The notes under the pieces: generated by a model
What the model was told of the DNA's origin: nothing
Databases searched by the model: none
The model's input: only the letters and a program-made list of their open reading frames with translations
Shown here: one piece after another, positions 2,786-55,234 of the stretch
Position numbering within the stretch: position 1 is the first letter of the stretch
Layout: each line of letters opens with the position of its first letter
Program-made: the position numbers and the translations under genes
Source of the DNA: a virus
Length of the DNA stretch: 64,000 nt
Strand: one strand, 5' to 3'
Virus record (IMG/VR): IMGVR_UViG_3300045988_126062

Positions 2786-3591
2786 TATTAAAAACGACAA
2801 CCAACGAGTTTTGTTTCATTAACGTAAGTTTCTATGAAACAATAGCAGATCCTCGCTATTTCTTTGAACAAGATTATGAAGAGATGCCAGAATATGAGGA
2901 TGAATTAGATTTTGATTTTGATTCTTATTGCAATAAGTTTATTCCTTTTGTACAGGAATGGGCGAATAAGGTGGGCGAACGCCTTTATGAATATGGTGTG
3001 AATAACATAAAGGTAATATCGGTCGGACATCCAAAAGATCACAATTATGGTACTGATTGGATGGATGTAAGGGTAGAGTTTTGTGATGAATGGAGGCAAA
3101 AGATGTTATCTAACATTGGTAAGATTGCCAATGATGATAAATGCAAGAAGTATGCGGAGGCTAATTACCGGTCGGTATCAGGATACATCTTTTTAGGGCC
3201 TGAAGATTTAAAGGAATTTGAAAAGGAAATAATAGAAAGAAAGTCAGATTCGGAATATGATGTAACAATATTATTAAATATGTATCTAACTTTGGCTTTT
3301 GTAAAAGAATTTGGATTTAAAGCCGGAGAAGCATGGAGTGAAATAACAGAATATGCTTACGGATGTTTATCGTATTCCGATTTTGCAACAACAGAGATGC
3401 TTATACCGGAAGGTTCGGAGCATTTATTCAAAGACATTTACACGGCAAAGGCCGACGAATTATATCATCATGTCCTGGATAAATTCGGATGGGCGTGGCG
3501 TGATCCGAAATATAAGTCAGAAACAGAATTATGCGCGATGCTAAAGTGGGCAAAAGAAAAAGGCTTGACCATTGAAGAGTTAAGTATTTAA
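2782..3591 (+). CDS. Hypothetical protein (269 aa)
   Basis: ORF track; ATGA start/stop overlap with the upstream ORF. Confidence 0.5.
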   Translation: MILKTTTNEFCFINVSFYETIADPRYFFEQDYEEMPEYEDELDFDFDSYCNKFIPFVQEWANKVGERLYEYGVNNIKVISVGHPKDHNYGTDWMDVRVEFCDEWRQKMLSNIGKIANDDKCKKYAEANYRSVSGYIFLGPEDLKEFEKEIIERKSDSEYDVTILLNMYLTLAFVKEFGFKAGEAWSEITEYAYGCLSYSDFATTEMLIPEGSEHLFKDIYTAKADELYHHVLDKFGWAWRDPKYKSETELCAMLKWAKEKGLTIEELSI

Positions 3592-3618
3592 TTGTTAAAC
3601 ATAAGGCAGTAGTGGTGC

Positions 3619-3903
3619 GTGAGTATAGGTGCTGCCGTTAAAATATTTTATAAGATGAAAAAAGAAGAGATTCAAACTATTTTATACACAATCAAAGAAG
3701 GAGACAGTATTAAAATCAAAGTACAAGACAAAAGTGAAGAGATAAGACTGCGGGATCATGTAAGAAGAGTACAGAAATACGGATACAGGTTTTGTTTGTC
3801 TCATTTACATGATGGAATTTTCTATCTGGAGAAGTTGAAAGAAGGGGATAAGGATAAATACTATAGAGTAATAAACAGAGGAAATGGAAAGACCGGAGTA
3901 TAA
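3619..3903 (+). CDS. Hypothetical protein (94 aa)
   Basis: ORF track. Confidence 0.4.
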   Translation: MSIGAAVKIFYKMKKEEIQTILYTIKEGDSIKIKVQDKSEEIRLRDHVRRVQKYGYRFCLSHLHDGIFYLEKLKEGDKDKYYRVINRGNGKTGV

Positions 3904-4177
3904 TAAGCTACGCAAAATGGCTAAGACTACTCCAGGTCTGATAGTGGACGAGGTGCAAAACATGATGCGTGTATCGCTATACGATAATGGGGAACTTAAG
4001 AAGGTGGTAGTAGTAATGAAATGCGATTCTTTTTTACAGTCAAAAAGTAACATAGAAAAGATAATGTTATTATCATCTTCTATAGAAGATAGAAAAAACA
4101 AAGAAAAAAATAAAACAAAATCAGAAAATGAACAGAATAACAAAAATAAGAGAAGAAATAGGAGGAAAACAGGTTGA
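3884..4177 (+). CDS. Hypothetical protein with K/N/R-rich basic C-terminal tail (97 aa)
   Basis: ORF track; low-complexity basic tail. Confidence 0.3.
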   Translation: MERPEYNKLRKMAKTTPGLIVDEVQNMMRVSLYDNGELKKVVVVMKCDSFLQSKSNIEKIMLLSSSIEDRKNKEKNKTKSENEQNNKNKRRNRRKTG

Positions 4178-7018: not shown

Positions 7019-7111
7019 GGTGGCGCCTGCCCTGCCATGAGGTCGGCCTGGCTGTCTGTGGTCAGGTCCGTACATTAGTCAGATAGTGAACGACGAAAAC
7101 AATACAAATGT

Positions 7112-7605: not shown

Positions 7606-8211
7606 ATGAAAACGAAGATAGAAAACCTAAGTTTTATAGTCCTGATATCTTTCCAGTTTGGTATAGGAACAGATAAGACATATTCATCCGAAGCTATATC
7701 AGATTTGAAAAAGGGTAAATACTTCATAGATAAATGTTCAAGTAGAGACGTAATACCTTTAGAAGAAAGTGATAATGGGTGCGTAGAACATAATTATGTA
7801 GGGCGTATAAATTTAGAAGGACTAAATAAACTGTTATGGAATTGGATTTATCCAGACAGCATAACCAATACAGGTGGAAGTCTGACTCTTCAGTATGGAT
7901 TATGCGAAGCTATCATGTTTGAAGGAACAATAAAACAAAAACATGACGTAGATACGAGGCTTGCCATACATAAGATGAACAAAGCTATAACAGGGAAGAG
8001 TGATACGTATCCGTTGCCATACAGATGTCAGATAGCAGAAGGAATGGCGGGGTATTGCACATATAGAGTATGTGTGACTCCTGTAGAGAAAAAGGATGAA
8101 GAATATGAATTATGTGAAGAGGTTTTTGATTTCTTTGAATCAATACAAAAACACCCATGTTGTGATTGGGAACAAGATTTTGAAGAGTTCTTTTACAACG
8201 ATAATGATTAG
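7606..8211 (+). CDS. Hypothetical Cys-rich protein with hydrophobic N-terminus (201 aa)
   Basis: ORF track; N-terminal hydrophobic stretch LSFIVLISFQFGIG. Confidence 0.5.
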   Translation: MKTKIENLSFIVLISFQFGIGTDKTYSSEAISDLKKGKYFIDKCSSRDVIPLEESDNGCVEHNYVGRINLEGLNKLLWNWIYPDSITNTGGSLTLQYGLCEAIMFEGTIKQKHDVDTRLAIHKMNKAITGKSDTYPLPYRCQIAEGMAGYCTYRVCVTPVEKKDEEYELCEEVFDFFESIQKHPCCDWEQDFEEFFYNDND

Positions 8212-31850: not shown

Positions 31851-32180
31851 ATGAAAGAAGATCTAATATGTGGAGTAGCGATCCTTTTGTATTTAGTTTT
31901 ATTATACTTGCTCACGACAGCTTTCATAAAAACAGGTAGAGCAGTAGATCGTTATAAGATGAAGAAGAAAACTGACAAAATCAAAGTAGGTCAAAGATAC
32001 GAACATAAGAACTACTTTGAGGATCCATTTGAAAGAGGCAAGCATGTGATTAAGATATTAGACATAAAAGAAGGGTACGTTCTATATGAGTACGAAGAAA
32101 AACCATATATACGTTCTTCTGTGAGTCTTGAAGATATTGTTAAAAAATACATTTTAATTACTGATGTTAAACACAAGTAA
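31851..32180 (+). CDS. Hypothetical protein with N-terminal TM segment (109 aa)
   Basis: ORF track. Confidence 0.4.
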   Translation: MKEDLICGVAILLYLVLLYLLTTAFIKTGRAVDRYKMKKKTDKIKVGQRYEHKNYFEDPFERGKHVIKILDIKEGYVLYEYEEKPYIRSSVSLEDIVKKYILITDVKHK

Positions 32181-32183
32181 GTC

Positions 32184-32561
32184 ATGAAAAAAGAAGTCAC
32201 AATCAAGGAAGATATGGCTGTGTTTTATAAAAATACAGGAAAAGAACTATGGATTTATAACGGACTTTTCAGAAACAAGGTGTTGTCTATAAAAAAAGAT
32301 AAAGCCATTATCATGTGTGAAACTGATGCTGAATATGCTGTACTGATAGAAGATAATCAGTTTATTGCCGTAGCAAAAAACATGGATTATGATTACTGCT
32401 GCGCATTCACATTAGGTAATGCCGAGGCTTATGGGGATCGTATGGGCATATCGTGCAGTGTATGCTTGCTTGAAGATAACGAAGATAAAGCAAGGGAGAT
32501 GTTGAAAGAGGCGATAATAGAACTTTCAAAAAACAGTAAAATAGATTGCGATGGGCTTTGA
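32184..32561 (+). CDS. Hypothetical protein (125 aa)
   Basis: ORF track. Confidence 0.45.
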   Translation: MKKEVTIKEDMAVFYKNTGKELWIYNGLFRNKVLSIKKDKAIIMCETDAEYAVLIEDNQFIAVAKNMDYDYCCAFTLGNAEAYGDRMGISCSVCLLEDNEDKAREMLKEAIIELSKNSKIDCDGL

Positions 32562-33972
32562 ACTTAGACCTTACCAAAAAGAGGCAGTAGATGCCGGGCT
32601 TAAGTTCCTTACAGGAAGATCTAAGAAGCCTGGCATAGAAGTCTTGCCGTGTGCAGCGGGGAAGTCTTTGATAATTAGCAAGATAGCTCATGAATTAAAA
32701 AGACCTATCCTTGTATTACAGCCATCTAAAGAGATTCTGGAGCAGAATTATGCGAAGGCTGTATCATTCGGTTCTAAACCTACCATATATTCTGCTTCAT
32801 GTAAAAAAAAAGAGTTATCGGCTATGACTTATGCTACACTTAAAAGCATAAAGAAAGACGTAGCAAGGTTGAAAGATATAGGGATAGACACATTATTGAT
32901 AGATGAGGTGCATAGCGGGTATTCTCCTGAAGAAGGTTCTGAATTTATGGAGTTTATGAACAGGTTCCCAGAGGCGAAGGTGCTGGGCTTCACCGCCACG
33001 CCCTGCCGCCTCCGGACCTACAGCTCCATGCTGGAAGGAAACTACAGCAAACTTAATATGCTGACGAAAGACGAGCATAATTTCTTTAAGAAGATAGTTC
33101 ATGTGACTCAAATACAAGAGCTAACTTCTCAGGGATTTTGGTGCCCTCTTAAGTACGAACGATGGTCGTTTGATGAATCGGCTCTGATATTAAACAGTAC
33201 CGGAGCCGAATATACCAACGAATCTATTAAAGAAAGCATCGTACGAAACGGCTTAAACAACTCTATCTACAAGCGCCTTCTTCAACTTATGAACGAGCGT
33301 AAAGCTATTTTGGTTTGCATGGATTCTATCGAATCATGTAATAGAATATCAGAGTTCATGAATGCCAGGATGGGAGCCATAACCGGTGTCGTAACATCGC
33401 TAACAACCAAAAAGAAAAGAGAGCAAATCATATCCGATTTCAAAGAAGGTAAGTTGAAGGTGGTTTTTAATTATTCAACGCTTGCTACCGGATTTGATTT
33501 TCCCGAACTTGATTGTGTGATGTTTGGACGACCAACATTCTCATATTCAACATATTACCAGGTGCTCGGCAGGTGCGTCCGCATCCATCCTGACAAGAAA
33601 GAGGCGCTGATAGTTGACTGCTGCGACAACATGAGGCGCTTTGGTCGGATAGAAGACCTGACAATCGAGCAATTCCCTTCTAAGGGCTGGTGTATGTTTG
33701 CCGGCGATCAACTTCTGTCTAATATAAGGATGGGTGATATTATTACCAAAGACGAGATCCTTCGTCGGGCAGCCTCGATTAAATCTGTGAATGGAGATGG
33801 TAGGAGAGAAGACGATCTTGACAGTATAATAATGTGGTTTGGAAAATATGAAGGAATTAGATTCAAGGACATACCGGTGTCGTATTTTAGGTTCTTGGCT
33901 GAGAATATGGCGGTAAAACCGGGAGATAGGAAAGAAAAGATTATCGAATATTATAATAGGATAAAAGCATGA
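32551..33972 (+). CDS. Superfamily-2 DEAH-box helicase (473 aa)
   Basis: Motif I PCAAGKSL, II LLIDEVHSG, III GFTATPCR, VI QVLGRCVRI. Confidence 0.8.
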   Translation: MGFELRPYQKEAVDAGLKFLTGRSKKPGIEVLPCAAGKSLIISKIAHELKRPILVLQPSKEILEQNYAKAVSFGSKPTIYSASCKKKELSAMTYATLKSIKKDVARLKDIGIDTLLIDEVHSGYSPEEGSEFMEFMNRFPEAKVLGFTATPCRLRTYSSMLEGNYSKLNMLTKDEHNFFKKIVHVTQIQELTSQGFWCPLKYERWSFDESALILNSTGAEYTNESIKESIVRNGLNNSIYKRLLQLMNERKAILVCMDSIESCNRISEFMNARMGAITGVVTSLTTKKKREQIISDFKEGKLKVVFNYSTLATGFDFPELDCVMFGRPTFSYSTYYQVLGRCVRIHPDKKEALIVDCCDNMRRFGRIEDLTIEQFPSKGWCMFAGDQLLSNIRMGDIITKDEILRRAASIKSVNGDGRREDDLDSIIMWFGKYEGIRFKDIPVSYFRFLAENMAVKPGDRKEKIIEYYNRIKA

Positions 33973-38537: not shown

Positions 38538-38580
38538 AAACTTATTTCATGTTCTGCTTATACAAGAAAAGATGGTAACT

Positions 38581-38627
38581 ACAACAATCCCCAACCATAC
38601 AATAGGCGTACGGTTGGGGATTGTTGT
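38581..38627. terminator. Strong bidirectional terminator between convergent modules: perfect 16-bp stem ACAACAATCCCCAACC/GGTTGGGGATTGTTGT with a 15-nt loop
   Basis: Read in sequence; lies between the last + gene and the first - gene. Confidence 0.6.
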
Positions 38628-39364
38628 CATATCGTAAAATTAAGTGTTTCTTCTAATATCAGATATTCAGTATGAACTTTACTTCCGCCATCATTTATCA
38701 AGTCCAAATTAATATAAGCTGTATATGATACATGATGATCACCAGGAGCAAGACGTTTCATATCTGATAAGAACACAGAATTTAAACCTTGGCCAGACCA
38801 TGATTCTGGATATGGCAAAGGTTTAAAGTCGGCGTCTGTACATCTTACAACCCAAGTAAGATTAGGATCTGCCCTAACTATTCTATCATGAGGTCCATCA
38901 ATTACAAGATCTGGCATCTCATATTGGTCACTACCATAATTAAGGACAATAGGATCACCAAAGTTTACACCGTATATAGCAGCAGGTGGAGTGAAGCTTG
39001 TTATTAAAAAGGTTCTATAAATCCTATTGGTTGTTCTTAGTGTAAACTCATCAGGTGCTATCACACTTACTCTAAATCCATAATAAGGAGAGGTTGTTAA
39101 AGCAATAGCAAGAACCACCGAATCCTGTTCAAGCAATTCCTCTGTCGTATCAACCTGACTATCGATCTCTTGCCTATCTTCCATTGGAACACCGCCTTGG
39201 ACACTTATGGAATCCAGCCGTTCTTTTTTAGACAGAAAGATAAATTGCCCGCCCTGTGGAATGGTGCCTACTTTCTTTCCTTCTACGATTACCCCCCCCC
39301 CTATGCAGTTGCTAACTATTTTATACTCATATAGTTTAGCATTATTTTGATATCTTCTTCTCAT
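38627..39364 (-). CDS. Hypothetical protein (245 aa) containing a G10 homopolymer at codons 22-24
   Basis: ORF track. Confidence 0.5.
   Translation of the reverse strand: MRRRYQNNAKLYEYKIVSNCIGGGVIVEGKKVGTIPQGGQFIFLSKKERLDSISVQGGVPMEDRQEIDSQVDTTEELLEQDSVVLAIALTTSPYYGFRVSVIAPDEFTLRTTNRIYRTFLITSFTPPAAIYGVNFGDPIVLNYGSDQYEMPDLVIDGPHDRIVRADPNLTWVVRCTDADFKPLPYPESWSGQGLNSVFLSDMKRLAPGDHHVSYTAYINLDLINDGGSKVHTEYLILEETLNFTI
39292..39301. repeat. Homopolymeric C10 tract (G10 on the coding strand) inside the 5' end of ORF 38627..39364; slipped-strand phase-variation candidate
   Basis: Counted directly: ...gattaCCCCCCCCCCtatgc... Confidence 0.9.
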
Positions 39365-39552
39365 AATTTCATAAAATTAATTCGGTAAAGGGGCGGACAT
39401 AATGTGAACTACCCCTTGAACCTGTATCCAAATGATCTCCTTGGATGTTTATATCATAATACCACGAATAGGTAAATTTTGTATTTCGAGTGGATGTCCA
39501 CATTCTATTACTCATTATCGTACCTCCTACCATTAAAAGGCATTCGTTTATT

Positions 39553-39987
39553 TCATTCGCATACAATGATATCAAAAAAAAACTCTCCGGCGCCACCTAC
39601 ATATCCATTTTGACCATTTTTAAATAAATAGCTATTAGCTTTATTAAAAGCGTAATTTTCATTACTGGTATCATATTCAAGATACGCATTCTGATTTTCA
39701 CGCCCCCAATAATCCTTTTTAATAGTTCCCATATTAGAACTATCTTGTGCAAATATATTGTCTATTTTTCCATCCTTACCCCAACGAAATGTGCCAATAT
39801 ATTCGGTGGCTATAACAAAACACACTTTATCTACAAGAGCTATTCCATTGCATAGATTATTGGAATATCCTTTATTAGACCAATTTTCTTTCGTATATAA
39901 TCCTCCGTCTACATGTTGGATATATATGCCTTTATTGATTATAAGCGAGGGATTTACCCCCATCCCTATTTGAAATCTTCGTCTCAT
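39553..39987 (-). CDS. Hypothetical protein (start at the ATG at 39987, MRRRFQIGMG...), 144 aa
   Basis: ORF track trimmed to the first ATG, which is preceded by an A9 leader. Confidence 0.45.
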   Translation of the reverse strand: MRRRFQIGMGVNPSLIINKGIYIQHVDGGLYTKENWSNKGYSNNLCNGIALVDKVCFVIATEYIGTFRWGKDGKIDNIFAQDSSNMGTIKKDYWGRENQNAYLEYDTSNENYAFNKANSYLFKNGQNGYVGGAGEFFFDIIVCE

Positions 39988-40014
39988 GATTTTTTTTTGC
40001 AAGATAGCAATAAT

Positions 40015-40200: not shown

Positions 40201-43200
40201 CTACTTGTAGCTCACATCATCGTCTCCTTCTGAATCAGGAGTAGCGCCGATGAAGAACATCATTGACTTGTTGTTTGTCTGCTGCCACCAATTATAGGCG
40301 CGCGCTACGTCTTCCGGCGTCTTGATATTATACCATTGTTTGATAAACGTCTGTTTGGCGAGTTGCCTAAATAACTTAGACTCTCCCTTGTATGTACCGG
40401 ATGTTACTTTATCAAGTGAATAATTCCTAAGATCGGTAAGATCCTTCAGTTTTCGCCCCATAACAAACGGATCGTTAATGATATCTACCACGTTAAGCTC
40501 CATAATAAACGGCATCTGTGAAGCTATTTCGTTTATGGTTCTGAATCCGACATAGGATCCAAATTGAGTAAGCCAACTTTCTTCGTTTTCATCATCATCA
40601 CGCCATCCGGCAAGAAGCATAGATACGGCCTGCATGATAAGGAACGTGCCGGCATAGACACTGAGACGTTTGAGATTGGTTTTTTCTACCTCATTCATAT
40701 TGTCTTTATTTTCGTTCCAGGCATCTATGATGTTTTTCATACCAGACTCGGAAGCCAGGCTAAATGTTTTGGCTATCATATTCTTTAACGTAATTGACAA
40801 CCCTTCCTCTTCTTGCATTGTCTGGAAATTGAAGCCACGTCTTTTCCACAGACGTTGAGCCGCCAGCACCAACCATCCTCGGTGGGCGGTCATGAACCTG
40901 GCTATCCAGTTGCGCGATGCGGCAGTTCGGTTTTCTTCATTCAAAGATCCGTTACATATCTGCGACAAGCTACGGACTTGATTCCTGGTTATAGCCATCT
41001 GGGTTTCAACTTCCTCAACAGTAACACCCGATCCCGGCTTTACAACCACCTTTCCATCCACGACGTCTACCATACTCCATAAAGTACGATCTTTTAATGC
41101 GTTCCATTCTCTTTTTATGGTACTCTGTTCTTTATTGCGTTCTTTTTCCATCTTGAAATCTTGGAACGTGTAGAACCGGCCTTTGTAATAACGAACATTG
41201 TCCATAGTAGCAATCATAACCTGCGGATCAAGAGGGTAGTTCAGGATTTCCATAAAAGCATACATAGGCGAACGCATTAAGGTCCTGGCCGCTCTATTGT
41301 ATCCGGCACCATACATACGATTTCGGATATTGAATATCCCCATTCTCTCACCTATGACATATAATTTGCTTTTCCTATCTATGTCTCCGGTTTCTGCTAT
41401 ACAAGATGGCGCAAGACGGGAAAACTCAGCCGATGCGTATTTAAGGGAATCTTTGCTTATATACTGTCCTACGGCTGATTCCATGATGAGGTTGATATGG
41501 CCTGTCAGGGCGCCGGTAGCTGCCACAAACGGAGACAGTGCCAAGTTCATAACCGACATAAATCTTTCAACAGCCATCATAATTCTTGTAAGGTCTACCG
41601 TATATCCTCCGATGTTCACCGTAAGTTTTTTGGTGTTCATCCTAATGCCATAATAATGATCGTTGAAGAAGTCCCTGAACATCTGATATGCTTGGGTTGC
41701 TTCAGCCTTTTTACCACCTTCAAATTGTTTATTTAGTAACATCTGCTCCAGTCCTTGGGCAAGCTCTATAGACTTCTGCTTTTCGTTGTATAACGATGAT
41801 TGCATCATAAGCATCGAATAAGAGTAGCCAAAATCGTGAGATACATCATCTTGGTTCTCCAATTCATATATGTAGTATTTAGGTATAGACCTAAGCCTGT
41901 CTTCTGGATCATACACTTCTCCTTGCCTGGTCTTACCATATAGAGAATCGTCTACTCTGTCCAGGCACAGATCTGATACAAAATTACGAACCGTATTTTT
42001 GAAGTTAATACCCAATCCTTCTACACGTTCTATATCTTGTTTGGATATCTGTGGAATAGCATACAGGTTCGGGCTCTGCTCTTTGTATAGATCAAGGGAT
42101 TGTCTTTTTATTTCCTTGAGTTTTTGAATCATATTCCACTGCTCTACGTTTTTAGTAGCAACCTCATTACCGTCAGCATCATACTTGATACCAAAGTCAT
42201 TGAAATACGATTCGTCACGATACAGGCTTTTCTTAGGCATTCGATGACCATACCCATGATCTTTTACATAATCAGGATTACGACCGCTATTTTCGGCTTC
42301 AGATTCAGCCACCCATGCCCTTGCAGGGTCGAAAGACAAGTACGATATGTCCATGCCATAATCTTGGGTGGATGTACCGTTTTGTACGTCCTTAACCATT
42401 TGCGCCACATCTATCTCACCTCGACCGATTTTGTCGATCATAGCTGCATATCCGGTAGGCGCCATGCGTTTATAGTACGAAAAAACCTGGCTTCTGGCAA
42501 ATTCATTAACAATAGCATTAGCTTCTTCTACGCCCTCTTCTCTTGTATTATTTAAAAATAAGCTGGCCATCTTAGCATTAACAGCATTCCTGAAATCTCT
42601 ACCGTCTAATTCTTTGCTTATACCAAGCTTTTCTGACAGGTAGTTGGTTTCAGATACGGTAAACAGATATCGGTTATCAGCAGCCTTAAACAGCTTATCC
42701 CTTAAAGCCTGAATCCTTTTTGCTTTCTTCGCCGTAGTATGACGTTGTACGAACTTCCATTCCACTTCCTTGGAGTCAGCAAGAGCATTTAAATAAGACT
42801 GATTTACTTCGTTTTCAGCCTTACTGCTTTTAGTAAGGTACTTATCAATATCTTCAAGACCCACCATCTTAGCATAATCTATCAAAATAGCGTAATCGGC
42901 TTCAATAGCTTCAGATGCGGCCCTAAAAGCATCTCTTTCGGATGAGGTAAATGTCGCTTCGTTAATTTCTCCGATATCAGCCACATCGCGATTGTTTCCG
43001 ATTATTTCCTTGATAATAGCCTTATTTTTTTCTATATCTTTCACAATAGAATCCACGTCAGTCGCATCTCTATCACTTGTCGTAGAACTAATGATATCAT
43101 GCGCCATTTTAAGATACGAAGCCTTGTTATTTGATTCGGTACGTGCCGACTGTTCTGATTCTACATCATTCCAAAACCGATCGTTGAATGACAGGTGACC

Positions 43201-46200
43201 TCCCAACATAAGTGTCTTCAGCGCAGCTTCTCCTCCAGACTCGCTCTGAATCGTTCTTAATTTTTGCAAAAACGATTCTGATACGGCATTAGTGGCATTA
43301 TTTGATTCCTTTCTCCAAACTTCATTTATAGCTTGTATTTCTTTGGCCATCTTAAGTTGGTCGCCGGTTTTTTCCACTCTCCTGGTTCCTACATATATGT
43401 ATTCTGAAGCTGCTTCCTTACGTTGTTTACGAAGCAGTCCTTCTTCTTCGTAATTGCTGCTTTTAAAATAGGCAACCTCATCAAAATTACCACCGCTATC
43501 AATAAAAGGCTGCCTCAATATCCGTTTTTGCCGGGATAGGGCATTAAGATATTCTTTGGTTGTTTGAGAAACCGGATACCCTAATTCTTCTTCAGCCTTT
43601 TTGTATATGGATTCCATTCTTGTGGCATAACTTTCGCTAAATTCCAGTTCCGAATTTTCAGCATCCCACTTTTCCATCTGCTCTGCATAGATCTTTTCCT
43701 GCTCGATGGTAAAAATATCGGTATTAACCCTATCAGACGATGGTTTGAATTTAGCGTTTTCAGTAACCGTATTTCCATCCTTGTCAACTACTTCTCTTTT
43801 AAATACGTAATTACGGTTATTGTCAACCACATCACCAATTTCTTCTTCTGATATCTCTATGTTCATGGCAGTCGCAAACGCTCGCATCTGCGCCAGCTTC
43901 TTATTACGATCGTATTTAGCCATATCAAGAGCACTACGAAGGTAATTAGAAGTTTTGCCGTCTACTTTCTGAAGCAGTTTTTCAAATTCAGATTTGTTAA
44001 AACCATGCTTTTTCGCATATGCCAGGAAATCGGATATGGCGGGCTGGGCATTCACCATCGCATTGTAATTGTCTTTGGCAATCATAGCTCCAAGAGCGTT
44101 ATTGAACGGACTGGAAGAATGCTCTAATATACCGAACCACCTACTTATCCAAGAAACATCGTGTTGAACCTTGTCGAAAAATTCTTTTACTCTCTTTACC
44201 TTATCTGCCGGCACATGAAGTTCGTTCATTAACTTATCAAGCAACGTACTTTCATCAAGGTCTTGTACTGATTTAATATCAGACTGAATACCATTGATGT
44301 CGGCAATGACGGTATTGATCCTATTTGTATAATCCTGCTTTTCACGTTCATCAAATTCGGTACTTCTGTTACGGATATATCCTCGAAGATCGTTCATGAT
44401 CGGAAGAACCTGATTGTTGATAATATCTACGTTCTTTCGATCATTGGTACTGAAGTGAAGCTTACCGTCTTTGGTATCACCATGAAGGATGGTGTTCACC
44501 ACATTGCTTAAGTATCTGACCTGAGCTTCGGCTGTAGAGATCATGCTGTTCATGGCAGCCGCCATCTCATTCTTGTCTATTTCGGTCTCTACCTTATTTA
44601 TCTTATCTTCTATGGTCTTAAGCTGAGCAAGGGTCATAGACGTAGTTACAGCCCTATCAGAGCTTATCTGACGTAAGTCTCTTAATGTTTTCCTTAATGC
44701 CAGGATCTTAGACTCAAGAAACTTGTTCTTGTTCATAGAAGAAAGGGAGTATAATGTAAAGTCATTATCCTTTAACAGAGAGGTGTCAAATCCTTTATCT
44801 ATGTCAGTAATGGCAAGATCACGAATGTTTTTAATAACGTTATTCAAATCTTGTCTTTGGGTTGATAAAGCTGATTTAAGCCAGCTTACGATTCCAGAGA
44901 AAAGCTGCCGGACGCGCCCCAGGAAGGAGGTGGGCTCTACCGGCGCCTGTGCTGTGCCGGTCTGCATCTCCCTGGCGAGGATCTTTCCAAGAATTTCTCT
45001 CCTAACAGCATTATCAAGTTCAGAGCCTTCATATACCTTACCGTATGTATTATAATACTGACCTGCATACTGATTCCATTCTTCAGTGCCTTCTACATCT
45101 TGCAAAACAGATTCAACAGCATTCTGATCTCTGTACGCCTCTACGAGAAAGTGTGCTGTTTCTTCTACTAAGTCAGACAAAGTAGCATCTTCACCGACTG
45201 CTATTACGTTATTGGCAATATCCGCCAATGCCTTAGCAGAAGGTTCGTGTCCGTATTTAGTTTGGTACTTCTCTATATAATCGGTCATGCCAACGACACT
45301 AACGCCCAGCGTTTTCAGTATCTCAACAATAGAATTTCGTTGATTACGTTCCTCTTGGCTATAATCCGATACTATCTTAGCTTTAGCATCAGCATAAAGA
45401 TCGTTGTCTTCTAATATGAATGAAACTACAAGCGCATCAAAATGATCGTACTTAGCATCCAATTCATTGTATCTTCCTGACTTGAGATCGTTCTTTATCT
45501 GCTCCTTGCTAATCCTCTCCGTTCCTCCGGTGGCGAGCCTCATAGTTACCTTACTATTATCCAATGAATTTATGGTTATCATACCCTGGTCGTTCATGGA
45601 AACATCGGAACCAAAATGATTACGGAGCTCAGTGTAGGATAAGGCTGAATTGAAAAGTCTAATTTGTCCTGTATGTCCTTCTCCTGTAAGATAATAGCTC
45701 CTTGTTTCAGGATCGAATATCTTGGATCCGGACAAAAGACCTTTCTTTATAAGGTAGTTAATTATCCCGCCTTTCGTTGATAAAGAAGTAGAAGCAGAAG
45801 CGGTCATGACCGGTATAAAAGATTTGGGATTATTAAGAACATACTTCCCAGCCTTGTAAGTAATGTCTGCCACGCCATCCACGGTAGATTCTTGAACGGT
45901 GCCGGATAAGAATCCTATTCTAATATCATTCCCGCCAGAGCGAAGAGCTTCTCCGTAATCTTCAAATAATTGACTACGATCGTTCATGAAAAACAAACGA
46001 GGCTCTCCGGTCTGATACGTTACACCCACAGGATTAGAATCTGTTTCTGGTAGCTCTTCTGGGCTAAATATCTTAAGACCGTCTTTTATAACCATATAAT
46101 CAACACCCTTATCCTGCACCATAGATACGGGAGTGAAGTCCGAAGATATAGCATCTTGTAGATACTGACCGGCGTCTATTCCAGGTCCTTCCGGCACGGA

Positions 46201-46623
46201 AATACTTGACGGAACCATAGCATCCACCAACATAATATTATCACCCAGATCTTGGCTGTAGAATCCAAAGCCCGATTCTCGGATTCCATAAGGTGCATCT
46301 GATTTTGACACAAGGATAGGGTTACTCATCTTAGAAGCCTTATCCAGCACCCTTTCCCTGTAGGTTTCAGGAATAAGATCAATATTGGATTTTACCTTAT
46401 TATAAGCCTGTTTATTAACAGGTACATTCCTTCTCCAGTCACCAAAAGCCTTTAAGAACTTATTAGAAAATACGGTTTTAAAAACAGTAGTAGACCGTTC
46501 CCTGTTCTCCATAAGAGGAATAGATGCTATTTTATCAAACAACATAGACCTGTCCCCTGATCTGGTAGAGACAGAAACAACTTTCTTTTTATTATCTCTT
46601 TTAATAATACACGTTGATACCAT
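40201..46623 (-). CDS. Giant protein (2140 aa), probably a crAss-like virion/ejected protein; could be the virion RNA polymerase, but no catalytic motif was confirmed
   Basis: Uninterrupted 6.4-kb ORF; a gene of this size next to a second giant gene matches crAss-like architecture. Confidence 0.8.
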   Translation of the reverse strand: MVSTCIIKRDNKKKVVSVSTRSGDRSMLFDKIASIPLMENRERSTTVFKTVFSNKFLKAFGDWRRNVPVNKQAYNKVKSNIDLIPETYRERVLDKASKMSNPILVSKSDAPYGIRESGFGFYSQDLGDNIMLVDAMVPSSISVPEGPGIDAGQYLQDAISSDFTPVSMVQDKGVDYMVIKDGLKIFSPEELPETDSNPVGVTYQTGEPRLFFMNDRSQLFEDYGEALRSGGNDIRIGFLSGTVQESTVDGVADITYKAGKYVLNNPKSFIPVMTASASTSLSTKGGIINYLIKKGLLSGSKIFDPETRSYYLTGEGHTGQIRLFNSALSYTELRNHFGSDVSMNDQGMITINSLDNSKVTMRLATGGTERISKEQIKNDLKSGRYNELDAKYDHFDALVVSFILEDNDLYADAKAKIVSDYSQEERNQRNSIVEILKTLGVSVVGMTDYIEKYQTKYGHEPSAKALADIANNVIAVGEDATLSDLVEETAHFLVEAYRDQNAVESVLQDVEGTEEWNQYAGQYYNTYGKVYEGSELDNAVRREILGKILAREMQTGTAQAPVEPTSFLGRVRQLFSGIVSWLKSALSTQRQDLNNVIKNIRDLAITDIDKGFDTSLLKDNDFTLYSLSSMNKNKFLESKILALRKTLRDLRQISSDRAVTTSMTLAQLKTIEDKINKVETEIDKNEMAAAMNSMISTAEAQVRYLSNVVNTILHGDTKDGKLHFSTNDRKNVDIINNQVLPIMNDLRGYIRNRSTEFDEREKQDYTNRINTVIADINGIQSDIKSVQDLDESTLLDKLMNELHVPADKVKRVKEFFDKVQHDVSWISRWFGILEHSSSPFNNALGAMIAKDNYNAMVNAQPAISDFLAYAKKHGFNKSEFEKLLQKVDGKTSNYLRSALDMAKYDRNKKLAQMRAFATAMNIEISEEEIGDVVDNNRNYVFKREVVDKDGNTVTENAKFKPSSDRVNTDIFTIEQEKIYAEQMEKWDAENSELEFSESYATRMESIYKKAEEELGYPVSQTTKEYLNALSRQKRILRQPFIDSGGNFDEVAYFKSSNYEEEGLLRKQRKEAASEYIYVGTRRVEKTGDQLKMAKEIQAINEVWRKESNNATNAVSESFLQKLRTIQSESGGEAALKTLMLGGHLSFNDRFWNDVESEQSARTESNNKASYLKMAHDIISSTTSDRDATDVDSIVKDIEKNKAIIKEIIGNNRDVADIGEINEATFTSSERDAFRAASEAIEADYAILIDYAKMVGLEDIDKYLTKSSKAENEVNQSYLNALADSKEVEWKFVQRHTTAKKAKRIQALRDKLFKAADNRYLFTVSETNYLSEKLGISKELDGRDFRNAVNAKMASLFLNNTREEGVEEANAIVNEFARSQVFSYYKRMAPTGYAAMIDKIGRGEIDVAQMVKDVQNGTSTQDYGMDISYLSFDPARAWVAESEAENSGRNPDYVKDHGYGHRMPKKSLYRDESYFNDFGIKYDADGNEVATKNVEQWNMIQKLKEIKRQSLDLYKEQSPNLYAIPQISKQDIERVEGLGINFKNTVRNFVSDLCLDRVDDSLYGKTRQGEVYDPEDRLRSIPKYYIYELENQDDVSHDFGYSYSMLMMQSSLYNEKQKSIELAQGLEQMLLNKQFEGGKKAEATQAYQMFRDFFNDHYYGIRMNTKKLTVNIGGYTVDLTRIMMAVERFMSVMNLALSPFVAATGALTGHINLIMESAVGQYISKDSLKYASAEFSRLAPSCIAETGDIDRKSKLYVIGERMGIFNIRNRMYGAGYNRAARTLMRSPMYAFMEILNYPLDPQVMIATMDNVRYYKGRFYTFQDFKMEKERNKEQSTIKREWNALKDRTLWSMVDVVDGKVVVKPGSGVTVEEVETQMAITRNQVRSLSQICNGSLNEENRTAASRNWIARFMTAHRGWLVLAAQRLWKRRGFNFQTMQEEEGLSITLKNMIAKTFSLASESGMKNIIDAWNENKDNMNEVEKTNLKRLSVYAGTFLIMQAVSMLLAGWRDDDENEESWLTQFGSYVGFRTINEIASQMPFIMELNVVDIINDPFVMGRKLKDLTDLRNYSLDKVTSGTYKGESKLFRQLAKQTFIKQWYNIKTPEDVARAYNWWQQTNNKSMMFFIGATPDSEGDDDVSYK

Positions 46624-47904: not shown

Positions 47905-49143
47905 TTACTTTAATATAATCGGATGCCTCTTCCCTCTAATGAGTTTAAACTTTTTGCGTGAAACATCTTTTGAATTTTCTCCGTTGAAATCCCTGATATT
48001 GAAACTCCCTGATTTTCTCCTTCCATAAACAAAACATATTTTATTATTATACAACACTTTATCAAACAACCTAAAACCAAAAACCTCAAAAGGAGCTTGA
48101 TTGTTTTTCTTCTTTCCTCCTTTTAAAATTTTCATTTTATGTATTTGCCTATTATGCCTACGAATTAAACGTTTTAAATATTGACATCCGATTCGTTTCG
48201 CATTAATGTTCTTAGAAATGACAAACGCGTCGGATGTATGGGATTTTTCAATCCCGTATTTAATCCGATTATGTTTCGTAATGTAACCAAACGTCATAGA
48301 AACTCTGTCGTATCTGGATCTCAGTTCTTCATACAACTTCCATTTCATGATCCCCATTACGGCCGCGTCGCGGAGCGACGATCCCCGTTTGATCTTCAAA
48401 TCTATATTACCTTTATGGTATTCTTTGTGACAAGTTTCACATAAGGTAATAAGATTAGAAGGGGAATCACCTCCCGTTTTTCGGGATTCAAGATGATGGA
48501 CATTAAGGATCTTATCTTTTGACTTCCCTTTACAATACTGACATTTATGCCCATCCCTTGCTAAAACATACTCCCTTGTGTTCCAAAACTCAAGTTGATC
48601 ACCTTCCTGGTATTCTTTACCTAATATTTCAGGATTCTTAATCTTTTGAGTATCAAATTGAGCTACTTCAATAACAATACGAGATATTGGTAGTATAGAG
48701 CAAATATTTTCAATAACACGAATATGAGCGTCTACTTTGTATTTCACCGAAGGTGCTACCCATCCTGGACGCTTGCTTTTTATTCTATTATTGAAACGAG
48801 GTTTTCTATACCTCAACCTATTCCGTCTTGTTCTTCGTAGCTCCCTTCTGGTAGACAAAAGATCTACGATATCATTTCTAAGGATCACTTCACTACTGTA
48901 AAGTTCTTTGCTTTTCGTTGTAGCTGATAAACCAACATGTTTAGTACCAGCATCAACGCCTAACACGATTTCTTGTTTGTAATCAGATGTAACGTACATT
49001 AATTTGATGGTAAACGGACATAGGTTTACAACGATTGCCTTTTTGTCTTTAAGCAGTCTCCTTACCTTACCATGCCTCGTTGTAGGCATCATAGGTTTAC
49101 CATTTATATCCTGTACGTACACCATACTTACAAACGTTTTCAA
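47905..49143 (-). CDS. iscB: IscB RNA-guided nuclease, second copy (412 aa; about 90% identical to the copy at 18464; alternative start MVYVQ at 49122)
   Basis: Same PLMP, RuvC-I/II/III, bridge-helix and HNH motifs as copy 1; C-terminal ~25 aa diverge. Confidence 0.85.
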   Translation of the reverse strand: MKTFVSMVYVQDINGKPMMPTTRHGKVRRLLKDKKAIVVNLCPFTIKLMYVTSDYKQEIVLGVDAGTKHVGLSATTKSKELYSSEVILRNDIVDLLSTRRELRRTRRNRLRYRKPRFNNRIKSKRPGWVAPSVKYKVDAHIRVIENICSILPISRIVIEVAQFDTQKIKNPEILGKEYQEGDQLEFWNTREYVLARDGHKCQYCKGKSKDKILNVHHLESRKTGGDSPSNLITLCETCHKEYHKGNIDLKIKRGSSLRDAAVMGIMKWKLYEELRSRYDRVSMTFGYITKHNRIKYGIEKSHTSDAFVISKNINAKRIGCQYLKRLIRRHNRQIHKMKILKGGKKKNNQAPFEVFGFRLFDKVLYNNKICFVYGRRKSGSFNIRDFNGENSKDVSRKKFKLIRGKRHPIILK

Positions 49144-54757: not shown

Positions 54758-55234
54758 TCAAACTGCCATCACGAAGAGTGGTGACTTCCAAGCTGGGATG
54801 TTGAAAACAGTACTGGTACTACCAAACTCACCATTCAACTTGATAGCATTTCCGCTGTTATTAGCCTCATAATAAAAATAACAATAATTTTCATTAATGC
54901 TTGGATCATATTCGTACCAATATGTTAGATCTTGTATATGGTCTTCTATATTACCAATTTTGTTTTCACCTAATATAAAAATACCATTATTGCTATGATG
55001 ATAAACCATAGATTCATAACCACCATAATTCCAATTACTATTAAACATTATGTAACTAACATCGGAATCATGATCTTTTAATACAGGCCCTATATGTATA
55101 TGAATTTTATTAAACTGACATACATAAGGTCTTTTTCCTCCAAGCCTTTTTATATCTTCATTGGATAACTTATTATAACATCCTCCCACGAAATTATCCG
55201 CAGCATTAAAAAATCTCCTTCTCATACTCAACAC
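54758..55234 (-). CDS. Hypothetical protein (158 aa)
   Basis: ORF track; 7-nt overlap with the upstream giant gene (translational coupling). Confidence 0.5.
   Translation of the reverse strand: MLSMRRRFFNAADNFVGGCYNKLSNEDIKRLGGKRPYVCQFNKIHIHIGPVLKDHDSDVSYIMFNSNWNYGGYESMVYHHSNNGIFILGENKIGNIEDHIQDLTYWYEYDPSINENYCYFYYEANNSGNAIKLNGEFGSTSTVFNIPAWKSPLFVMAV

Follow-up and report, generated by a model that had tools for sequence, protein, structure and literature searches.

The late-gene block of a 64,000-nt stretch of viral DNA (IMG/VR record IMGVR_UViG_3300045988_126062; the whole stretch is called the window below, and positions are window coordinates) ends with a minus-strand gene, here termed gene B (38627..39364; 245 aa; no Pfam or PHROG family), which carries a run of ten G residues close to its start (minus strand, 39292..39301; C10 on the plus strand). 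Plus-strand genes occupy 1-38537 and minus-strand genes 38627-64000, and the latter block contains giant genes for proteins of 2140 and 2214 aa. A first-pass annotation of the sequence took gene B to be the first gene of the minus-strand module; because minus-strand transcription goes from high to low coordinates, it is instead the last, 3'-most gene of the late block. Upstream of it, in the same direction, lie gene A (39369..39987, minus strand) and the 2140-aa giant gene (40201..46623, minus strand), which corresponds to a 'virion structural protein' family (phrog_37651). The gene B stop codon is directly followed by a 21-bp perfect hairpin between the convergent blocks (38581..38627; -35.1 kcal/mol, z = -7.9). 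This hairpin came from folding, a promoter and terminator consensus scan near gene B having returned nothing useful; it is likely a bidirectional terminator and is conserved in the phage crAssE-Sib. The window region is 97% identical to crAssE-Sib (OR575929, 151 kb, human gut), an identity by which the window phage is an epsilon crAss-like phage (Epsilonunovirus). crAssE-Sib was assembled from Illumina reads and is placed in the proposed epsilon crAss-like genus Epsilonunovirus; prophage-like relatives have been reported in Parabacteroides (PMC11054128). When we looked for a host or prophage among 185,579 representative bacterial genomes, no relative appeared, and Parabacteroides is suggested only by that paper.

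The tract follows a conserved leader formed by codons 1-21 of gene B (MRRRYQNNAKLYEYKIVSNCI; 39302..39364, minus strand), and the protein begins MRRRYQNNAKLYEYKIVSNCIGGGV (also given as MRRRYQNNAKLYEYKIVSNCIGGGVIVEG). On the minus strand the surrounding sequence is AGC AAC TGC ATA GGG GGG GGG GTA ATC GTA, in which the ten G residues fill codons 22-24 and extend one base into codon 25 (ATA GGG GGG GGG GTA), exactly where the first-pass annotation had placed them. At this length the gene is in frame (ON) and reads MRRR...SNCI-GGG-VIVEG...; the full-length 245-aa product requires G10 or any other length of 3n+1. The expectation that a change of one base in either direction would truncate the protein was borne out in silico. 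Loss of one G (G9) brings the TAA directly 3' of the tract (39289..39291, minus strand) into frame and yields a 24-aa product, while G11 yields 45 aa, G8 44 aa, and G12 25 aa.

A run of this kind is exceptional in the window, whose GC content is 37.5%. Besides G10, the longest G or C run in the 64 kb is a single C6, followed by runs of 5, and the expected number of G or C runs of at least 10 is 0.007 if bases are independent and identically distributed. GGG is also the least used Gly codon in the window genes (14.5%), which gives a probability of 0.003 for GGG GGG GGG at a given Gly-Gly-Gly; the sole other Gly-Gly-Gly tripeptide in the window genes is written GGT GGT GGC. The tract is a simple sequence repeat (SSR) far beyond chance for this genome, one of the features by which contingency loci are recognized.

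Tract length and gene integrity among relatives

All related sequences are metagenome assemblies, and the variation described here was read between assemblies. A protein search returned 227 homologues, all metagenomic, most of them 245 aa and several 221-227 aa with a start at or after the tract; the gene is found in thousands of public gut metagenomes, in clusters of 741 and 2677 member sequences. An IMG/VR scan gave 77 loci, and the tract tally was made on 74 related loci plus the window, i.e., 75 alleles. Comparison of orthologues for tract-length variation, which the first-pass annotation had called for, was positive. With flanks otherwise identical, the tract is G8, G9, G10, G11, or interrupted, and 32 of the 75 alleles are in frame (ON) and 43 out of frame (OFF). 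By length, G8 was read in 12 alleles, G9 in 28, and G10 in 24. The alleles include 23 in-frame ones with G10 then TAATCG, 25 out-of-frame G9 alleles, 12 out-of-frame G8 alleles, and 3 alleles of a sub-lineage in which G9 then TGTTATG is the in-frame length and G8 alleles are out of frame. Interrupted tracts occur both in frame (G5TG4, G5AG4, G7AGG, and G9A) and out of frame (G8AGG and G8AAG), and the IGGE form (G7AGG) is the most frequent among full-length database clusters; such interrupted ON alleles are typical of contingency loci. In the databases, OFF alleles appear as proteins of 221-227 aa, for which gene callers have chosen a TTG or internal codon beside the tract as the start (MYRGGV...; e.g., P0060, P0075, P0115), and the database clusters therefore mix ON forms with shortened OFF forms.

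Six alleles show no substitution in the 680-nt body, yet carry G8 (L024, L025, and L027), G9 (L026 and L070), or G10 (L004). Under parsimony, the gene tree needs no fewer than 35 changes of the tract and 21 switches between ON and OFF, compared with a mean of 0.8 and a maximum of 12 steps for nucleotide columns on the same tree, although recombination can inflate change counts of this type. ON and OFF alleles are scattered over the tree in a nearly random manner (at least 21 changes vs. a mean of 24.4 for shuffled tips). The tract lengths can be called reproducibly, since locus pairs with 0-1 substitutions in 6.7 kb share theirs (L003/L035, L024/L025, and L058/L059); at 0.24% divergence, L002/L039 come next in similarity and have G10 vs. 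G9. As a control, the A6 and T6 runs of these loci show no variation (e.g., 57/57 and 60/60). By these sequence comparisons, the tract is mutating much faster than ordinary sites.

The six zero-substitution bodies (L004, L024-L027, and L070; body 3074-3735) lie within 3-kb flanks that differ by 5-10%. Identical bodies in divergent flanks imply that divergent epsilon crAss-like phages have recently exchanged the gene horizontally, or that one allele has swept through them.

Frame loss at the tract is rarely accompanied by damage elsewhere in the gene. The 220-codon body after the tract is still open in 41 of the 43 OFF alleles, and, the tract itself aside, the lesions in all 75 alleles amount to a single nonsense mutation and two frameshifts. 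If the body were unconstrained, 17-23 of the 553 tree-inferred substitutions would be nonsense changes (one observed; P < 1e-5). This pattern argues that the OFF alleles are not decaying and that the change is reversible rather than that of a pseudogene.

Deep orthologues retain the tract. A search of 1.84 billion cluster representatives gave only 35 relatives, several of which could be traced to their DNA. Among these, the orthologue with 55% identity (L079 and L080) contains ATA-G10-T, the 40%-identity orthologue (L081) ATA-G10-TAATC, and a remote homologue that has the N-terminal domain alone in common (L083) an in-frame G9. The 40%-identity lineage is itself polymorphic in IMG/VR, with G9 in 9 loci, G10 in 5, and G11 in 1, in a search that detected tracts of at least 9 only. 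Since a run of the rarest Gly codon is retained although synonymous sites are saturated, it can be argued that the run itself is maintained, and on this evidence the tract appears to be under selection.

The gene B protein and the MRRRF leader genes

Gene B, gene A, and the gene that replaces gene B in crAssE-Sib belong to no family in Pfam or PHROGs scans; for gene B, a PDB profile search gave no match, and a BFVD search returned only its own family. An AlphaFold2 model built from a 31-sequence alignment is all-beta (predicted local distance difference test score, 77.6), with a small N-terminal beta domain (approximately residues 12-60) and a beta-sandwich (approximately residues 69-245). The Gly-Gly-Gly encoded by the tract sits in the turn between strands 1 and 2 of this model, a location that fits the tolerance of an extra in-frame Gly in the 246-aa database forms. 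A PEGA or CarboxypepD_reg identity for the N-terminal domain was considered and set aside, given no meaningful Pfam match even at E <= 10; the resemblance (V.S.C.GG.V.VDG..VGT.P...G.F...) is a pattern seen by eye only.

The N-terminal ~60 aa recur on proteins with other C-terminal bodies, once in two copies, and some of the relatives that carry them have BACON domains. The ratio of nonsynonymous to synonymous polymorphism (pN/pS) is 0.78 overall, 0.45 in the N-terminal part, and 1.5-1.7 in the C-terminal half. Taken together, gene B encodes a conserved N-terminal module and a C-terminal beta-sandwich that evolves fast and can be exchanged, and it lies at the end of the structural block. Host-interaction proteins show this pattern, and the product is probably a binding protein. 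From its position and all-beta fold, it may be located in the virion and may bind a ligand. A diversity-generating retroelement (DGR) was rejected as the cause of the high pN/pS, and gene B as a DGR target was excluded within the 64-kb window, which contains neither a repeat of gene B nor a template-like repeat. The DGR described for crAssE-Sib targets a different gene (PMC11054128).

The upstream neighbor, gene A, shows a related arrangement. It starts at the ATG at 39987 with an MRRRF leader (protein start MRRRFQ); the intact gene encodes 205 aa in crAssE-Sib (WOZ57324), and the frameshifted window copy encodes 144 aa. The frame is broken by a T9 run (39574..39582, minus strand), T8 being the in-frame length and that of crAssE-Sib, and related loci have T7, T8, or T9. 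An independent Logan assembly that encodes the window's exact gene B protein also has T9 and a 144-aa gene A. The T9 frameshift explains three upstream fragments of open reading frame (ORF); neither a different genetic code nor an ORF that reaches further upstream is needed for them, and both ideas were rejected. Within the gene A leader, GGGATGGGGG (39957..39966, minus strand) is an interrupted version of the ATA-G10-TAA element; it reads ATA GGG ATG GGG GTA AAT, i.e., G10 interrupted by AT and then TAAA. The uninterrupted ATA-G10-TAA is present in gene A of L078, and the G5 part is G4, G5, G6, G8, or G9 elsewhere, with the expected consequences for the frame.

Of the 75 loci, 40 have gene A in the ON state, 33 have it OFF, and 2 lack it, and all four ON/OFF combinations of genes A and B are found. 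The routes to the OFF state are T7 or T9, G4, G6, or G9 in the interrupted tract, and several internal deletions; gene A has deletions in L013, L016, L028, and L034 and is absent from L026. Judged by these alleles, gene A is undergoing both switch-like changes and real decay. In two loci (L036, 3001-3693; L048, 2973-3669) the gene A leader is joined at the G tract to the gene B body by a ~620-bp deletion between the tracts, and the fusion is in frame with 231 aa in L036 (G5) and out of frame in L048 (G9). The G tracts seem, from these junctions, to act as microhomology for deletion and fusion.

The first ~7 leader codons, MRRR[FY][QE]N, are common to unrelated neighboring genes. BLASTP of gene A, gene B, and the crAssE-Sib replacement gene against one another found the MRRR[FY]Q leader as the only similarity. 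Homology to crAssE-Sib covers the giant gene and gene A, ends at 39343 (codon 7 of gene B), and resumes at the hairpin; in between, the gene B body is replaced by an unrelated 149-aa ORF that has only MRRRFEN in common and no G tract. A third gene with an MRRRF leader lies directly downstream of the 2214-aa gene in the window (54758..55225, minus strand; 155 aa; MRRRFFNAADNFVGGC...) and has no long G tract. The structural region of crAssE-Sib contains further MRRR[FY] genes, one with a Pfam Gly_rich_2 domain. In L153 such genes (3286-4008, 4018-4116, and 32030-32608) are found in the structural block, typically just after giant genes. Another MRRR[FY] gene, of 192 aa, has an N-terminal pattern like that of gene B and no G tract.

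The same design is repeated as an array in another crAss-like phage (L082; Logan SRR33454295 contig 4076), which was found via a remote homologue and in which the array is flanked by CrAss_Ring genes. Four tandem small genes (L082 3235-8250, with a TnpB gene inside the array) each consist of an M[RIA][RV]RRFYN leader, 8-20 more codons, a run of G9-G11, and a body of 130-220 aa; the corresponding C-runs are at 3894-3904, 7063-7072, 7656-7664, and 8195-8203. TAAT follows the G run in three of the four genes, and the body ends with SEVD[AN][VI]GD in three of four. All four are out of frame, and a one-G change restores each to 167-243 aa. Because four adjacent genes are each disabled only at the poly-G run, they are hard to explain except as switches. 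A search for the array genes in IMG/VR found no relatives. A TATCTTTG motif is present 20-30 nt upstream of three of the L082 leader ATGs (near 7110, 7700, and 8240), and upstream of gene A in the window (39990-40005) there is TATCTTGC followed by A9. TATCTTTG fits the Bacteroidetes -7 promoter consensus, TAnnTTTG. These motifs suggest that each small leader gene has its own host-type promoter.

Proposed phase switching and its alternatives

We propose, with a probability of roughly three in four, that the G10 tract is a hypermutable SSR contingency locus within the 5' portion of an accessory gene that is not essential and that closes the late or structural block. Slipped-strand mispairing during replication of the phage DNA would add or remove a G, and, as for established SSR contingency loci, one-base changes would be reversible and would generate mixed ON/OFF populations. 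G10 would give the 245-aa protein, G9 would stop translation after 24 residues, and G8 or G11 after 44-45, so that populations would contain both ON and OFF variants of this two-domain, all-beta protein and lineages would pass from one state to the other. The C-terminal part of the protein evolves fast and is swapped as a cassette. The protein could be a virion-associated adhesin, a receptor-binding accessory, or a protein recognized by host defence. More speculatively, the ON/OFF mix might be adaptive bet-hedging, for example between binding and avoiding a variable host surface, or in escape from a defence that senses the protein. The first-pass annotation had suggested phase variation from the tract alone, and the comparison between assemblies supports it (G8-G11 with identical flanks, intact OFF bodies, and at least 35 changes). 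The frame effects, the length polymorphism, the intact OFF alleles, the conservation of the tract, and the recurring design are all observed directly in the alleles.

Several points weigh against this proposal. Heterogeneity within a population, the switching rate, and reversibility are deduced from differences between assemblies. A homopolymer miscall is possible for any single metagenome contig, and the fetched loci contain no control homopolymer of at least 8 in an essential gene. The ON fraction is 43% (38% among pure tracts), near the one third expected from neutral drift, and a pN/pS near 1 also fits relaxed constraint. The fold is generic and without a family match, which makes virion membership and function indirect attributions. 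Finally, in G9 alleles a TTG that precedes the tract by four codons, in the frame of the body, could serve as a start, and a -1 ribosomal shift at GGG-TAA would restore the G9 frame; the OFF state, on this reading of the sequence, may be leaky rather than null. In G8 alleles, a TAG just upstream of the tract closes the body frame.

Of the alternatives, decay of the gene survives best, although we regard it as unlikely. A dispensable gene may be in the process of being lost, the tract being merely its most mutable site for neutral frameshifts. The near-neutral ON fraction, a pN/pS of 0.78 overall and above 1 in the C-terminal half, the true decay of gene A (deletions in L013, L016, L028, and L034; absence from L026), and the complete lack of the gene B body in crAssE-Sib are all compatible with such loss. 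However, it predicts neither the intact body ORF in 41 of 43 OFF alleles nor the single nonsense mutation where 17-23 are expected, and it does not account for a G10 kept at 40-55% identity despite codon bias against GGG. The interspersion of ON and OFF alleles on the tree would require repeated restoration of the frame, and the four L082 genes, each disabled only at poly-G, have no other lesion.

Programmed recoding or graded expression is slightly less probable again. In this scheme, the G run is slippery for RNA polymerase or the ribosome and acts as a volume control, with all alleles expressed. The stop directly after the run in G9 alleles has the form of a classic 'shifty stop', at which a -1 shift of tRNA-Gly (GGG-TAA to GTA) restores the body frame; the Gn+TAAT arrangement recurs in other genes, and the G9 TTG start yields 226-aa products that are called in databases. 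On the other hand, such sites are normally fixed in length, whereas this tract occurs in several lengths and is often already in frame; the out-of-frame peptides (24-45 aa) are not conserved products; and G8 alleles, whose body frame is closed by the upstream TAG, need a +1 or -2 event. To our knowledge, efficient slippage on G runs has not been established for Bacteroidales, which also counts against recoding. Assignment to the class of programmed frameshift or slippage sites was rejected on the polymorphic, often in-frame length and the alternative products of 24-45 aa. Recoding may still contribute leakiness.

We consider it improbable that the variation is an artefact of sequencing or assembly, i.e., that the true tract is constant and the G8-G11 alleles, perhaps with the window's G10, are homopolymer miscalls. 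The data are all metagenome assemblies, poly-G is a known problem for short-read chemistry, one contig (L046) starts exactly at the tract, which indicates that assemblers struggle there, and the window and crAssE-Sib differ at the T9/T8 run. Nevertheless, 57% of alleles are out of frame, far above the expectation for consensus error, and the variants come from many independent IMG projects as well as Logan, ENA, and NCBI assemblies. Locus pairs identical over 6.7 kb give the same length, and runs that are short and not error-prone vary as well (G5 to G4 or G6 and T8 to T7 or T9 in gene A) while the A6 and T6 controls are invariant. Interrupted tracts such as G5TG4 and G7AGG are substitutions rather than length errors, and independent assemblies reproduce both the exact protein encoded in the window and its T9 allele.

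The least probable account, that the leader and G tract are a recombination joint providing short homology for body swaps and deletions with frame changes as a by-product, draws on the leader-to-body fusions in L036 and L048, the different bodies behind the same leader and tract (e.g., P0129 and the TGTTATG lineage), the identical gene B bodies in genomes with flanks 5-10% different, and the MRRRF leader common to unrelated genes, but the crAssE-Sib homology breaks at codon 7, upstream of the tract, and the one-base polymorphism with intact bodies and the conserved 3n+1 G count are left unexplained. This account complements the switch and does not compete with it.

By analogy, the closest known system is that of the Campylobacter Fletchervirus phages, whose receptor-binding-protein genes carry hypermutable poly-G tracts of 7-11 G (Sorensen et al. 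2021, Cell Rep 35:109214, as summarized in PMC12633550). There, as here, an intragenic phage poly-G lies in late or structural genes, its length toggles the frame and gives, or here would give, mixed ON/OFF populations, and several tract genes per genome are possible, as in L082; the hosts of these phages have phase-variable surface structures. The similarity is one of working and not of membership. Gene B has no sequence relationship to these genes (no PHROG or Pfam match), the phage here is a crAss-like podovirus rather than a Campylobacter myovirus with its hosts, and the tract is placed within a conserved N-terminal leader common to unrelated bodies. Receptor binding and host-range effects were demonstrated by experiment in Fletchervirus and are putative here. 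The Bacteroidales hosts may likewise have phase-variable surface structures.

Homopolymer contingency loci have also been described in T2 and T4, in which polymerase slippage causes reversible frameshifts (Gomez, Barrick and Waters, bioRxiv 2025, PMC12633550), and the same study cites poly-G tracts in BPP-1 and PB1-like phages. Homopolymers in ORFs are read there as bet-hedging, e.g., for escape from host defence, as may apply here; in T2/T4 they are mostly short runs (at least 6, typically A/T) over all gene classes (PMC12633550). In contrast, the window has one exceptional G10 in an AT-rich genome, kept in deep orthologues, with a dedicated leader and stop context, and the evidence is comparative here and experimental in T2/T4. 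The locus appears to work like known phage contingency loci, and the family of leader, poly-G, and cassette is possibly new. Literature searches found no report of homopolymer switching in crAss-like phages; these searches were noisy, so prior work is possible. The accessible part of the epsilon crAss-like genome paper covers the DGR, repressors, and taxonomy and does not mention homopolymer variation (PMC11054128).

Two further systems offer partial parallels. Neisseria, Haemophilus, and Campylobacter have surface genes that are phase-variable through poly-G/C SSRs. Gene B resembles them in having a G/C homopolymer near the 5' end, an ON/OFF state set by its length, alleles in which an interruption lowers the mutability of the tract, OFF variants whose ORF is otherwise intact, and a fast-evolving product of the surface or binding type; it differs in being a viral locus, copied by a phage replisome, with a phage rather than a cell phenotype. 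The internal-protein (IP) loci of T4 have a conserved N-terminal capsid-targeting sequence on highly variable bodies. They share with the MRRRF genes a short conserved leader on unrelated, rapidly exchanged small genes in a plastic region. In contrast, nothing marks MRRRF as a targeting or cleavage signal, the Ig-like beta-sandwich of gene B fits a binder better than an injected inhibitor, and no T4 IP gene is known to be switched by poly-G.

The switch design is kept across divergent epsilon crAss-like lineages and is repeated in the gene arrays of another crAss-like lineage. We tentatively extend the proposal, at somewhat less than even odds, to a modular 'phasome' of crAss-like phages, in which an MRRRF leader, poly-G, TAA(T), and an exchangeable beta-sandwich body would make up a unit of which each genome has one copy or more (four at least in the largest set), flipping independently, recombining at the leader or tract, and giving each population mixed host-interaction phenotypes. 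Crass-like phages are among the most abundant human gut viruses and persist for years alongside hosts that vary their surface. If the extension is correct, the phasome could mirror, on the side of the phage, the capsules and surface proteins that Bacteroidales vary by phase, and it might go some way toward explaining why crAss-like phages and their hosts coexist stably over the long term. A switch on a fast-evolving protein of the binding type would in itself give these phages built-in population heterogeneity. The hypothesis is directly testable, as tract-length spectra can be read from existing public reads. For annotation, gene callers split or truncate such genes (as in the 221-227 aa products), and 'frameshifted' crAss-like genes do not warrant automatic correction or dismissal as errors.

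Further features of the region

The hairpin that follows gene B differs in detail between the two phages. Its stem has one base pair altered on both sides (CAACAA/TTGTTG in the window vs. CAATAA/TTATTG in crAssE-Sib), and two other positions are altered on one side only. Between the end of the plus-strand block and the hairpin, crAssE-Sib is longer by ~200 bp (window 38555-38560 vs. L001 3556-3761), and this extra stretch has an annotated 82-aa plus-strand ORF. Within the late/structural block of the window, between small ORFs and the 2140-aa gene, lies a gene for a 412-aa RRXRR + HNH endonuclease (47905-49143, minus strand), which is possibly a mobile, homing-type element.

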